A DNA stretch of 64,000 nucleotides from an uncultured Planctomycetales bacterium. Lineage in GTDB: Bacteria; Omnitrophota; Gorgyraeia; Zapsychrales; JANLHA01. A model generated the notes under the pieces. It had not been told where the DNA came from. It saw only the letters and a list, made by a program, of their open reading frames with translations, and did not search any database. Shown here piece after piece: positions 5,317 through 10,988 of this stretch (within the stretch, counting starts at the first letter, position 1; each line of letters opens with the position of its first letter). The DNA is taken from NCBI GenBank assembly GCA_964489065.1, contig CAZAXH010000004.1:15181-79180 (forward strand), written 5' to 3'. The position numbers were made by a program, and so were the translations under genes.

Positions 5317-6948
5317 CTACTCGGACAACTTAACGATCACGCCGTTTTTACGCGCTTGCATAAAAGCGTGTTTCATAAATACCAACCCTATAACAAGATA
5401 AACAATAACTAACGTGAACCCCTTCCAAAGTACATGCCGGAGAACCGGCTCAAAGCCAAAACTTTGCCGAAAATATTCCAGGAAATATGTGATAGGGATG
5501 CCTTGCGCGCAATAGTAAAAAAATTTCGGCAATGTATTAATAGGATAATAAATCCCGCAGACCAGCATGAAAAGATACGCAAACATCCAGGCCGTTATTT
5601 CCGCTTTCTGGCCAAAACAAAGCAGAAGATAACACACAAGTGTTCCCAAAAGAAGCGCAGAGCCGAAGATCCCCAACAAAAAGATCCCGGTCACGGATAA
5701 AGACGGGAAGTGGAATCCGAAAAAACCCATGGCAGCACAGCCCAAGATCCCGAAAATAATCACTCCTCTGACAATGCCGATCACCCAGGACCCGAAAAGA
5801 TGCTCGCTGATCCCCACCGGCGTCAGGAAGGTGTGCTTTAAACTTTTGGCCCACACCTCATACAAGAGGCTGTAGGCGACATCCAACTGTGTGACCTGTA
5901 AAATGCCCGCAGTCATTGCGCCCGTGATAATAAAAGCGAGCGCCCGTTCTTCCATCTGCAGAAAATCCCCCATAAGCCCGATCGAGATCAAGCTGACGAT
6001 CGGCCAGAACACCAGTTCCATAAAAGCAAAAAAATTCCTGATCGCGTAAAGCATATTCCGGTACGTAAACGCAAAACAGCTGTTCAACCACTTGGTCGCA
6101 TCCCCGGCAAGCGGGCGCGGTCCAGCGCGTATTTCCCGCCGGCTCAAGACTTCGGTCGCCTCCGGCTGCGGCGGGGAGGCCGTGATCGGCTCTGCTATCT
6201 TGCCGGCCAGGTCAATAAAAACATCTTCCAAATCCTTCTTGCCCTGCCGTGCCTTTAATTCATCCGGAGTCGCCAGCCGGATAAGGCGCCCCTCTTTGAG
6301 AAAGGCAATCCGCTGGCACATCTTTTCCGCTTCCGGCATATAATGAGTTGTCAGCAAAATCGTCGCGCCCGTCTTCTCATAAATATCCAAAATCAGCCGG
6401 CGGATTTTAACCGCCACATCCGGATCAAACCCTACAGTCGGCTCATCAAGAAAAATAATCTTAGGGTCGTTGATCAGGCACTTGGCCAAGGCGAGCTTCT
6501 GCTTGGTCCCGCTGGAGAGTTCGTCAAAACGAAGCCGCGCGGCCTGTCCCAGTCCAAACATGTCAATCAGGGACGCCACGCGCTGTTTTAAAATTTTCCC
6601 CTTAAGGTTATACAACCGGCCGTAAAAAAACAAATTTTCTTCCAGGGTTAAACTCCAGGGGAAATTGGGGTGCCCGGAACACATATTAAAACTCTGCCGC
6701 AATTCGGAATAATGGGCCGGAACCAGTTGTTTTTCCAGCATCGTGACCGTTCCGCTGTCGGGCAAAAGCAAGGTGGAAAGGATGTTTAACAACGTCGTCT
6801 TGCCCGCGCCATTCGGCCCCAGGACCCCTAAAATTTCCCCCTCCCGGATATCCAGGGAAACATGATCCAGAGCTTTAATGCGCACATGTTTTCCCGCCTG
6901 AGAAACAAATGTCTTGCTGATATTGTTAACGGAAATCAACGTTTTCAT
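5317..6948 (-). CDS. Fused ABC transporter: N-terminal ATPase plus C-terminal ABC-2-type permease
   Basis: Walker A (GPNGAGKTT). ABC signature (LSSGTKQKLALA). Walker B (IIFLDEP). The C-terminal half has about 6 TM helices of ABC-2 permease type. Confidence 0.85.
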   Translation of the reverse strand: MKTLISVNNISKTFVSQAGKHVRIKALDHVSLDIREGEILGVLGPNGAGKTTLLNILSTLLLPDSGTVTMLEKQLVPAHYSELRQSFNMCSGHPNFPWSLTLEENLFFYGRLYNLKGKILKQRVASLIDMFGLGQAARLRFDELSSGTKQKLALAKCLINDPKIIFLDEPTVGFDPDVAVKIRRLILDIYEKTGATILLTTHYMPEAEKMCQRIAFLKEGRLIRLATPDELKARQGKKDLEDVFIDLAGKIAEPITASPPQPEATEVLSRREIRAGPRPLAGDATKWLNSCFAFTYRNMLYAIRNFFAFMELVFWPIVSLISIGLMGDFLQMEERALAFIITGAMTAGILQVTQLDVAYSLLYEVWAKSLKHTFLTPVGISEHLFGSWVIGIVRGVIIFGILGCAAMGFFGFHFPSLSVTGIFLLGIFGSALLLGTLVCYLLLCFGQKAEITAWMFAYLFMLVCGIYYPINTLPKFFYYCAQGIPITYFLEYFRQSFGFEPVLRHVLWKGFTLVIVYLVIGLVFMKHAFMQARKNGVIVKLSE

Positions 6949-7009
6949 AAATATAGGAACTGATCCCGCAGGCAGGGCTTCCGGAAATTTTGGAAAAGCA
7001 TCCCCGCTC

Positions 7010-9294: not shown

Positions 9295-9305
9295 GGCAGA
9301 CTCCG

Positions 9306-10988
9306 TTAATGCCCGCTGCTCACGCATGCCCCATGACAGGCCCCGTGGCAGGCGGAATGACACGCGGAATGGCAGGCGGAATGACACGCAGAATGGCACG
9401 CGTCGTGGCAAACATTCTGCAAAAACGGCCCTTCATAACAAAGCGAGGAATTCCGGAAAGAGGAAAACCCTTCCTTGACCTGGGGCGCGCTCACCTCAAG
9501 CGCCCGTCCGACGTCCTGGCTCCGGCGGTAATAATCCCGGTCATGATAATACATCCGGCCGTAATAATGGTGATAATATCCGTCCCAATAATACCCGGCA
9601 TCCGTTTCCTGTTGGGGGTTTTGTTTCTCCTGTTGCAGGATGGCGTCCATACGCTGTTTGTAATACGCTTTTGTGGCGTCCACATCGCAATCCCAGATTT
9701 TTTGCTCAAGCCCCGCGGCCATGGTATGGAAAAGGTCATTGATAAATCCCTGCGGGATATTCCCGGACATATCAATCGCGTTTAAAATATTATTTTCATA
9801 AGGGTCATCCCCACCCGCCGCGCCTGAAACCCGCTCGACCTTCAGCGGATCATGGCTGATCATCTTAAGGAGGCCTTTGCGTTCAAGATTCTGGATCATC
9901 AAGCCGGCCAATGTCCCCAAAGGGATATCCAGCAGAAGCCCTGCCTCCAACGCCGTCAGGTCCTTGTTGATTTTCCCGTCCTTGCGGAACGACCCCACCT
10001 GAATTTTCGGAGGCACCCATTCGTCCCCATCCCAACGGATCGGAGCGATGCCGTCCTGAGCCGATAGCATGGACACATGCTTTCTCGTCATCATTAAAAA
10101 CGGAAAAAGAAAAAAGACAACGCCTCCGAACAGCAGCAGCCCCACCAGACCGCCGGCGGAAAGCGGCACCACCGCCAGGACACTCCCGGGGAAGTACCGG
10201 TTGAAAATATAATTTTCTTCTGCCTTCCGGAATCCGGGGGTATCCGCCCAGGGTTGGGGAGCAGCCATGGTCGTGAGATTAAAATATTTCGCGTCGAGAT
10301 ACGTCTGAATCTGAAAATGATACCGTGAGGGCAAATCATCACGGTGAAAGCGGACCGTGAACACCGGATTCCCTTGCGCGTTGGTCGCCGCCGGATAATC
10401 GATCTTATAGCGCTGATTGACATACTTTTCGGTCAAAAAGTTAACGGCGGACAGGTCCTGGGGGGAAACTTCAGGCGTGTTCATAACGACAGGGTAATGA
10501 ACGGTTACCGTTTCATGCTCCAGGGCGTCACTCCACTGAACCGGGGCCCAGTTAAAAACCGCTAACCGGCCGTGCGGGCTTTCGGTCAGGACGACATGGC
10601 CGCTCTCCTGTAAATCAGTTTCATAATTAAAACGGTAGGTAATCTCTCCGTCATGAAAAGCCTGCCCTCCCGCCAACACGATATCATATTTAGTCGACGA
10701 CAAGTATGTAATATCAAGGGAATACTGCGTGCCGTTCTCGTCAACGGCGTGCGCGTCCAGATCATTGAACCGGGGCACCCCGGCAAAACCTTCAAAATAA
10801 AACCCATGCAGGTCAGCCGCCCGGCAGGCCCAACGGACCGCATAGGAAACCCGGGCTTTCCCATCCGGGTCCAAGACCACATCCACCTCAACCCAGCGCA
10901 TTTTAAATGACCCGCACCAGGCTGGAGCAGCCAGGCTGATGAGAAATATCAGCGTTATGAGGGGAAAAATTGTCTTTTTCTTAAACAT
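9306..10988 (-). CDS. DUF2207-like membrane protein with a C-terminal Tyr/His-rich segment and a (C-H-x-A)x7 repeat tail
   Basis: Signal peptide. About 250-aa extracytoplasmic domain. TM ([31 protein letters not shown]). A C-terminal cytoplasmic region ending [22 protein letters not shown]...[34 protein letters not shown]. Confidence 0.7.
   Translation of the reverse strand: [560 protein letters not shown]
9318..9404. repeat. 12-nt tandem repeat (about 7 units, consensus aatgRcaSgcRg on the + strand) encoding the CHxA repeats
   Basis: Seen directly: ...aatgacacgcgg aatggcaggcgg aatgacacgcag aatggcacgcgt... Confidence 0.8.

Follow-up and report, generated by a model that had tools for sequence, protein, structure and literature searches.

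A 64,000-nucleotide stretch of the genome of an uncultured bacterium assigned to the Omnitrophota (assembly GCA_964489065.1, contig CAZAXH010000004.1, positions 15,181 to 79,180; hereafter the window) carries on its minus strand three adjacent genes that encode a 560-residue membrane protein ending in a run of Cys-His-x-Ala (C-H-x-A) repeats, a 443-residue radical S-adenosylmethionine (radical SAM) enzyme with a SPASM domain, and a 318-residue membrane protein. The linkage of these three genes is obligate among relatives. With moderate confidence, we propose that they form a maturation module in which the enzyme crosslinks the repeats of the tail and the modified product is retained on the membrane protein. 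Positions given below are those of the window, and L and P numbers are our identifiers for loci and proteins.

A conserved cassette of three genes

The gene for the tail protein (9306–10988), the gene for the enzyme (7963–9294, 443 residues from its ATG) and the gene for the 318-residue protein (7010–7966) follow one another on the minus strand. The TAA of the first is separated by 11 nt (cGGAGtctgcc) from the ATG of the second, whose stop codon shares an ATGA overlap with the start of the third. After a further gap of 61 nt comes, still on the minus strand, a gene for a 543-residue fused ATP-binding cassette (ABC) ATPase/ABC-2 permease (5317–6948). All four open reading frames (ORFs) reported in a first-pass annotation of the window are present, as are the GGAG-containing 11-nt junction before the ATG of the enzyme gene and the ATGA overlap that it described. 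A longer, TTG-initiated ORF (7963–9411) was rejected as the enzyme gene, because the residues that it adds at the N-terminus are an out-of-frame reading of the tail repeats and because the position of the MEYY start is the start in all homologues.

The conserved unit was delimited by scans from either side of the cassette. An enzyme-side scan of one genome per species found a relative in 421 genomes, of which the best 80 loci were kept (radical SAM enzymes 48–97% identical to that of the window); a tail-protein-side scan of metagenomes, which used motifs outside the tail only, contributed 80 more, for 160 loci in total. Among the best 80 of the 421, loci come from Omnitrophota, Elusimicrobia, Armatimonadota, Hydrogenedentota, Sumerlaeota, WOR-3, Planctomycetota, Gemmatimonadota, Firestonebacteria, Auribacterota, Spirochaetes and others, about a dozen phyla overall; identity between the window itself and a metagenome-assembled genome from the Omnitrophota is 97%. 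The tail protein lies immediately upstream of the enzyme on the same strand in 78 of these 80 loci, the contigs of the other two starting inside the enzyme gene, and the 318-residue protein lies downstream in all 80. Seen from the other side, all 76 complete tail proteins end in the repeat tail, 73 of them are followed by the enzyme gene or its 5′ end (in the remaining three, the sequence ends no more than 193 nt downstream), and the 318-residue protein is present in every metagenome locus whose contig extends far enough. The pairing of tail protein and enzyme, first suggested from the window alone, is found at every informative locus from either search direction.

Across the 160 loci, the conserved unit consists of three same-strand genes, for the tail protein, the radical SAM enzyme and the 318-residue protein. 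No fourth conserved gene emerged when the ORFs of 78 loci were clustered: only three families occurred in at least 78 loci, and the remaining clusters were discarded as antisense shadow ORFs or lineage-specific neighbours. Pfam scans of the immediate neighbours in ten other lineages found them heterogeneous. Identity to the window proteins co-varies (n = 122) between enzyme and tail protein (Spearman 0.88) and between enzyme and 318-residue protein (0.76), which is what joint inheritance of a module would produce.

The ABC gene, whose product has ABC_tran and ABC2_membrane domains, follows the cassette only in L001–L004 and L083, where the enzymes are 93–97% identical to that of the window. 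It is already gone from the cassette in L005 (enzyme 72% identical) and in all other phyla, leaving about 155 loci without it. Because this adjacency is restricted to the closest relatives, the transporter is not part of the system, and the earlier picture of a four-gene system with a dedicated ABC exporter has to be given up.

The repeat tail and the motif that precedes it

The tail occupies residues 527–560 (9309–9410, minus strand), reads (CHxA)7-CVSSGH and is the proposed substrate. The 560-residue protein does contain both the seven repeats and the Tyr/His-rich block to which attention had first been drawn. A degenerate DNA pattern for three consecutive C-H-x-A units gave six overlapping matches, all at 9324–9410, and none in 100 shuffles. 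Statistics were taken over 156 tails with 133 distinct tail DNAs. In the distinct DNAs, the first position of the repeat is Cys in 981 of 981 units, the second is His in 981 of 981 and the fourth is Ala in 980 of 981, with the third varying among Ser, Asp and Gly. All synonymous codons are in free use (TGC/TGT 623/358, CAC/CAT 534/447 and all four Ala codons), so the constraint on the tail acts on the peptide and not on DNA or RNA.

The repeat number is seven in 84 loci and eight in 65, and is rarely 3–6, 9 or 11; the extremes are 11 repeats in L133 and only three in L025 and L122. The closing residues are CVSSGH, CVSGGAH or slight variations on these. As a measure across clades, ungapped identity over the final 34 residues was discarded, since the VSSGH and VSGGAH ends are of unequal length. 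The tail stays near-invariant while the remainder of the protein drops to about 33% identity. What had initially been taken for an unusual ending of the window protein is instead the defining, nearly invariant feature of the whole family.

Directly before the repeats, residues 508–526 (9411–9467, minus strand) form a conserved pre-tail motif, a candidate leader-like recognition element with the consensus [FY]-x2-F-x2-[ST]-x2-C-[YH]-x-[GA]-x-[FY] in most members. In 128 distinct sequences, conservation reaches 84% for F at −16, 86% for S/T at −13, 85% for C at −10 and 86% for F/Y at −5. The motif is a plausible docking element for the enzyme's putative RiPP recognition element (RRE; RiPP, a peptide made on ribosomes and modified after translation). 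In an Armatimonadota-type clade (for example, L055–L079), the pre-tail region itself carries an additional unit, ...DACHSACYVHTA-CHDA....

When the final 70 residues of the protein were searched exhaustively with phmmer against 1.84 billion representatives, only 35 matches came back, and no standalone CHxA precursor peptide of this family was among them. Short matches considered as precursor peptides proved to be N-truncated family fragments in which the upstream domain is still present. The same search also caught other proteins with Cys at every fourth residue: P0272, P0289 and P0297 have CY(D/S)x repeats, P0272 matching NCBIfam TIGR04114, and P0284, P0285 and P0293 have long C(Q/E)xx repeat arrays in proteins of 590–770 residues.

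The radical SAM/SPASM enzyme

That the enzyme is a SPASM-type radical SAM protein, as the first-pass annotation had it, was borne out by profile hidden Markov models, with both Radical_SAM (PF04055; E = 2.3e-26, 93.4 bits against a Pfam cut-off of 29.5) and SPASM (PF13186; E = 3e-10, 40.6 bits against 21.5) scoring above their thresholds. The radical SAM core (8509–8943, minus strand) contains the motif C122-x3-C126-x2-C129, whose three cysteines are invariant in 24 homologues. The region of the SPASM auxiliary clusters (8032–8244, minus strand) contains C351, C354-x9-G364-x4-C369 and C408-x2-C411-x5-C417-x3-C421; together with C337, which lies upstream of this span, these seven SPASM cysteines make eight C-terminal cysteines that are invariant in the 24 homologues, enough to ligate two auxiliary clusters. 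Two further cysteines, C133 and C135, form a CGC directly after the CX3CX2C motif, the former invariant and the latter present in at least 90% of homologues.

The first ~100 residues (8995–9294, minus strand) are strongly conserved, the domain in homologues being 47–81% identical to that of the window, and appear at the level of the family to be a PqqD-like, or RRE-like, domain. PF05402 (PqqD) matches 11 of the 24 homologues, with a best E-value of 8.6e-6, and precomputed PF05402 matches exist for P0040–P0051. At the end of this domain, C88 is conserved in at least 90% of homologues and falls outside the canonical motifs.

By profile, the nearest solved structures are SkfB, PqqE, SuiB, CteB and 8vpo. 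The first four are peptide maturases with the same succession of RRE, radical SAM and SPASM domains. With 8vpo the match begins within the N-terminal domain, at query residue 40, and the structure of anSME matches residues 122–211 only. None of the curated radical SAM families in NCBIfam, which included PqqE, MftC, HxsC/HxsC4, ACGX, GeoRSP, ScmE/F, StsB, DynA, WgkB, AhbD and NirJ, reaches its cut-off with the enzyme; the best 25 score 72–141 bits against cut-offs of 180–725.

The two membrane proteins

An AlphaFold model of the tail protein (predicted local distance difference test score, pLDDT, 78.9) has a signal peptide, a β-sandwich ectodomain (residues 27–232), one long transmembrane helix (residues ~278–314) and a cytoplasmic helical domain (residues ~346–519), followed by the repeat tail, which is modelled with pLDDT below 50. 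A signal peptide combined with a single transmembrane helix would place the tail in the cytoplasm, within reach of the radical SAM enzyme. We propose that the ectodomain is ribophorin-like, a divergent DUF2207. Of the family labelled DUF2207-like earlier, the homologues P0002 and P0016 exceed the cut-off of PF09972 (26.8 and 31.0 bits against 24.4), and the window protein itself, at 16.1 bits, scores below threshold. No Pfam or NCBIfam family covers the tail protein (NCBIfam gives nothing at E ≤ 0.01). The Tyr/His-rich block (residues 466–487; 9528–9593, minus strand) has a YYW(G/D)GY core that, together with Y487, is conserved in the homologue alignment, and its His richness is lineage-specific. 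P0270 is an 843-residue variant of the tail protein with an enlarged ectodomain, in which two separate β-sandwich-like regions can be made out by eye.

The 318-residue protein has no Pfam or NCBIfam match, and its 195 homologues are all annotated as 'hypothetical'. Its model (pLDDT 82.9) has transmembrane helices at residues 23–43, 46–60, 108–130 and 134–153, arranged as two hairpins, and a C-terminal cytoplasmic α/β domain (residues 185–313) that resembles type III secretion chaperones. Judging from this fold, a likely role for the protein is to present the tail in its unfolded state or to keep the enzyme anchored at the membrane.

A proposed mechanism of tail maturation

Several lines of evidence identify the tail as the likely substrate: the class of the enzyme and its putative recognition domain, a linkage that is obligate in both directions, the conserved motif ahead of the tail, the start of the enzyme gene in translational coupling just behind the tail codons and an independent, parallel pairing of C-H-x-S repeats with an unrelated radical SAM-like protein. 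In that pairing (L164–L166; L164:1086–2451; P0279 and P0292), signal-peptide proteins of 117–121 residues end in C-H-x-S repeats (...CHSSCHSSCHGSCHGSRGWR). The L164 repeat gene overlaps the stop of an ORF of 339 residues that contains CDLRCKHC (CX3CX2C) and a SPASM-like CIQCEWQKSCRNGC (a CX2CX5CX3C motif); Radical_SAM matches this ORF only at E = 3e-4, below the Pfam cut-off. This looks like a second, distinct Cys-His repeat/radical SAM pairing, for which there is no curated family.

We infer the substrate from these observations; the chemistry, the part played by the third protein and what becomes of the product are likewise proposals. The enzyme, taken to be cytoplasmic, would dock on the conserved aromatic/Cys motif immediately N-terminal to the repeats and install one radical-mediated crosslink per four-residue unit. 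As C, H and A are all invariant, two chemistries fit. One would be a thioether from Cys to an invariant neighbour, of the sactipeptide or ranthipeptide type made by enzymes such as PapB or NxxcB; the other would be a cyclophane between His-C2 and Ala-Cβ on each H-x-A, as made by HaaB on H-A-A, which would leave a row of free thiols. During the reaction, the 318-residue protein could hold the unfolded tail or tether the enzyme at the membrane. The product would be a rigid polycyclic Cys/His array on the membrane protein, neither cleaved nor exported, that would probably bind metal or serve as another functional structural element. Retention rather than secretion is suggested by the lack of a conserved protease or exporter and by the near-invariance of the core, which resembles the targets of cofactor-type pathways (PQQ, mycofactocin, QhpC) and not the cores of antimicrobial RiPPs.

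A bolder version, speculative and as a whole unlikely to be correct in our estimation, is that the enzyme turns the (Cys-His-x-Ala)n tail into a protein-derived cofactor, a crosslinked ladder in which thiol or thioether and imidazole ligands hold a chain of metals or Fe–S clusters. If it were true, such a tail at the cytoplasmic face of a ribophorin-like receptor would constitute a new device for metal or Fe–S handling, redox sensing or transmembrane signalling, common to Omnitrophota, Elusimicrobia, Armatimonadota and other mostly uncultured phyla.

Weighing the alternatives

Several points weigh against enzymatic crosslinking of the tail. The pre-tail motif is missing in about 15% of family members. 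The N-terminus of the window's enzyme has no PF05402 match of its own at E ≤ 0.1, and comparing this domain with PDB profiles gave only uninformative noise (chance matches to HIV protease; TfuB1, an RRE protein, no better than E = 1.3), which counts neither for nor against, so the RRE/PqqD fold for which the first-pass annotation had proposed a search is assigned through the 11 matching homologues and not through the window protein. The curated models that score best are those of tetrapyrrole enzymes (AhbD with 141 bits and NirJ2 with 134), which rank above PqqE (112 bits); all three scores are far below their cut-offs. Sequence does not discriminate between a thioether and a cyclophane. Finally, the invariant Cys/His array could be a metal- or Fe–S-binding site that needs no modification. 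Elaborated, this last point becomes the main rival, which we judge unlikely: the tail itself would bind metal or Fe–S, the radical SAM enzyme would act on a small molecule, on the 318-residue protein or on a cluster or cofactor delivered to the tail, and the three proteins would assemble into a complex at the membrane that might, for instance, handle or sense iron/sulfur. Invariant Cys/His dyads are consistent with this arrangement, as are the nifU and nifS genes directly downstream in 42 Elusimicrobia-type loci, the ferritin-like gene upstream and the second radical SAM/SPASM-cupin gene downstream in L006, and the modelling of the tail as a low-confidence helix, which would put the cysteines on one face. 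The nifU/nifS association is limited to one phylum, however, with unrelated neighbours in the others; a non-ligand Ala kept in 980 of 981 units, with fixed spacing and repeat number across phyla, is rare for metal-binding tails; and the enzyme has a putative PqqD-like peptide-recognition domain and a gene that begins 11 nt past the tail codons.

The other alternatives are further from the evidence. A secreted RiPP-like product, which would require modification and cleavage of the tail and its export through the neighbouring ABC transporter, would suit an enzyme of the RRE–radical SAM–SPASM type that is typical of RiPP pathways, and in the window and its closest relatives the ABC gene does lie 61 nt after the cassette on the same strand. 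We nevertheless find this improbable, because that gene is not beside the cassette in L005 or in any other phylum, no protease recurs in the neighbourhood, the core hardly changes from phylum to phylum, in contrast to the variable cores that antimicrobial RiPPs have, and the tail-only search revealed no standalone precursor of the family. Still less probable is an anti-phage or other conflict system with a radical SAM-matured repeat protein like that of the HXS system, in which radical SAM enzymes mature a repeat-bearing effector (PMC13128918). The cassette is found in varied genomic contexts, as such a system might be, but its neighbours are of the housekeeping type rather than those of defence islands, its divergence follows taxonomic labels with the three genes co-diverging, and PADLOC recognizes only a generic viperin-type radical SAM protein and an ABC ATPase, with nothing for the tail protein or the 318-residue protein. 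Moreover, there is one radical SAM enzyme and no HxsD, and with the HxsC model the score is 72.1 bits where the cut-off is 267.9. We give least credence to the attachment of a tetrapyrrole or other cofactor, with overlapping C-x3-C-H units as heme-c-like sites and His as the axial ligand. Consecutive repeats can indeed be read as CX3CH, and AhbD, NirJ2 and NirJ are the top curated radical SAM models; yet AhbD/NirJ scores of 116–141 bits, against cut-offs of 500–515, are barely above those of peptide maturases, heme c is attached outside the cytoplasm, in which the tail is predicted to lie, the last Cys is followed by Val and not His, and no heme-handling genes recur nearby.

Relation to known systems

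Enzymes of the radical SAM/SPASM class that carry a recognition domain are familiar chiefly from the production of small secreted peptides or of cofactors that diffuse. The module described here appears to work like an RRE-dependent maturation system of this class, outside every curated family tested. With SkfB, CteB, PapB, NxxcB, SuiB and PqqE, the enzyme shares the layout of a putative N-terminal PqqD-like domain, a radical SAM core and a two-cluster SPASM domain, and the candidate substrate shares a Cys-rich C-terminal region of short repeats at fixed spacing. The proposed substrate here, however, is the tail of a 560-residue integral membrane protein, in contrast to precursors of 40–100 residues; there is no conserved protease or exporter, and the core is near-invariant across phyla; and the third partner is a conserved membrane protein with a chaperone-like domain. 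Sactipeptide and ranthipeptide systems likewise have the enzyme architecture and a Cys-rich core (freyrasin, the product of PapB, has six CX3D repeats, and NxxcB acts on NxxC), but the precursor here is not a short leader-core peptide. In sum, four features depart from the known kind: a membrane-protein scaffold, an invariant eight-fold core, no genes for processing or export and a dedicated chaperone-like membrane partner.

Triceptide synthases provide the closest precedent for the second chemistry. HaaB forms a His-C2 to Ala-Cβ crosslink on H-A-A (PMC11499958), and the H-x-A of each repeat fits the aromatic-X-X3 pattern, with first and third residues as in the HaaB substrate, a likeness of motif only. 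In triceptide precursors, too, several motifs follow one another; here, by contrast, there is an invariant Cys between motifs and the substrate would be a membrane protein. The HXS system consists of HxsA, which has HxS repeats and a domain that binds peptidoglycan, two radical SAM enzymes (HxsB and HxsC) and HxsD (PMC13128918). As proposed here, radical SAM enzymes of that system act on a full-size protein with short His-containing repeats, and its product is a functional protein and not a small antibiotic. The HXS effector, though, is processed, exported and binds peptidoglycan, whereas the tail here is predicted to be cytoplasmic and has different partners, namely a single, putatively RRE-fused radical SAM enzyme and no HxsD-like gene among the conserved neighbours. 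The HxsC and HxsC4 models score 72–112 bits with the enzyme against cut-offs of 268–500.

The repeat-target systems defined by Haft (CXXX/TIGR04114, ACGX and GeoRSP), which are themselves chemically uncharacterized, resemble this one in having Cys at every fourth residue beside a radical SAM/SPASM gene, and differ in the C-H-x-A unit and the membrane-protein scaffold. The tail protein has no match to TIGR04114, the model for CXXX-repeat targets, for which the CYDx protein P0272 served as positive control (23.2 bits against a cut-off of 20); the ACGX and GeoRSP enzyme models score 99–110 bits with the enzyme against a cut-off of 400. QhpD, which acts on QhpC, and anSME, which acts on sulfatases, are SPASM enzymes that modify Cys in a conserved target that is functional as a protein afterwards, yielding a protein-derived cofactor or catalytic residue. 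They have no family relationship with the present enzyme beyond the superfamily, and substrates, partners and repeat architecture differ.

The view that this system had not been described agrees with our searches: no curated family was found in Pfam or NCBIfam, and the literature searched, which left most subscription journals outside, contained no paper combining DUF2207 with radical SAM and none with CHSACHSAC, and wider searches of it gave nothing of relevance. An invariant target beside which neither a protease nor an exporter is conserved suggests a lasting modification of the protein that is essential to its function. More broadly, the module would represent a new substrate class for radical peptide chemistry, with an eight-fold repeat ideal for mass spectrometry, and would offer a handle on the function of bacterial DUF2207/ribophorin-like membrane proteins. 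It also provides a defined module in Omnitrophota, Elusimicrobia and Armatimonadota, lineages in which few gene functions are known.

Neighbouring genes

In 42 Elusimicrobia-type loci (linked loci: L015, L018–L046, L068, L094–L134), the next genes after the cassette, in the same orientation, are nifU, with NifU_N, BFD and NifU domains, and then nifS, a class-V aminotransferase. The start of nifU usually lies 30–200 nt past the gene for the 318-residue protein. These neighbours, confined to one phylum, may represent an iron–sulfur link. In L006, an Omnitrophota single-cell genome, a second radical SAM/SPASM protein, fused to a cupin (L006:9342–11210), follows the cassette, and the ferritin-like gene (L006:4746–5210) precedes it.

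Upstream of the tail-protein gene, a candidate σ70-like promoter (TGGACA-17-TATAAT, 11 of 12 matches, a match to consensus only) lies at 11020–11048 on the minus strand. Diverging from the cassette on the plus strand are genes for a 548-residue B12-binding radical SAM protein (11191–12837) and then for a 593-residue protein with multiple transmembrane segments and tetratricopeptide repeats (TPR; 12930–14711); this pair adjoins the cassette only in the Omnitrophota relatives L001–L005. On the other side, downstream of the ABC gene on the minus strand, lie a ~212-residue membrane protein with no Pfam family on record (4545–5183), which from a reading of its sequence we take to be NfeD-like, and a 467-residue Band_7/flotillin-like protein (3127–4530), the former being upstream of the latter. 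The ABC transporter, the B12-binding radical SAM protein, the TPR protein and the NfeD/flotillin pair were all rejected as parts of the system, because they are kept only at 72–97% identity of the radical SAM enzyme. A promoter-like site at 5229–5201 precedes the ~212-residue/flotillin pair, which is itself kept only in the closest relatives. Beyond it, on the plus strand, a 643-residue protein (1132–3063) is a fusion of a SAM-methyltransferase with a D-Ala-D-Ala-ligase-like ATP-grasp C-domain, according to the Pfam listing of the identical L001 gene.

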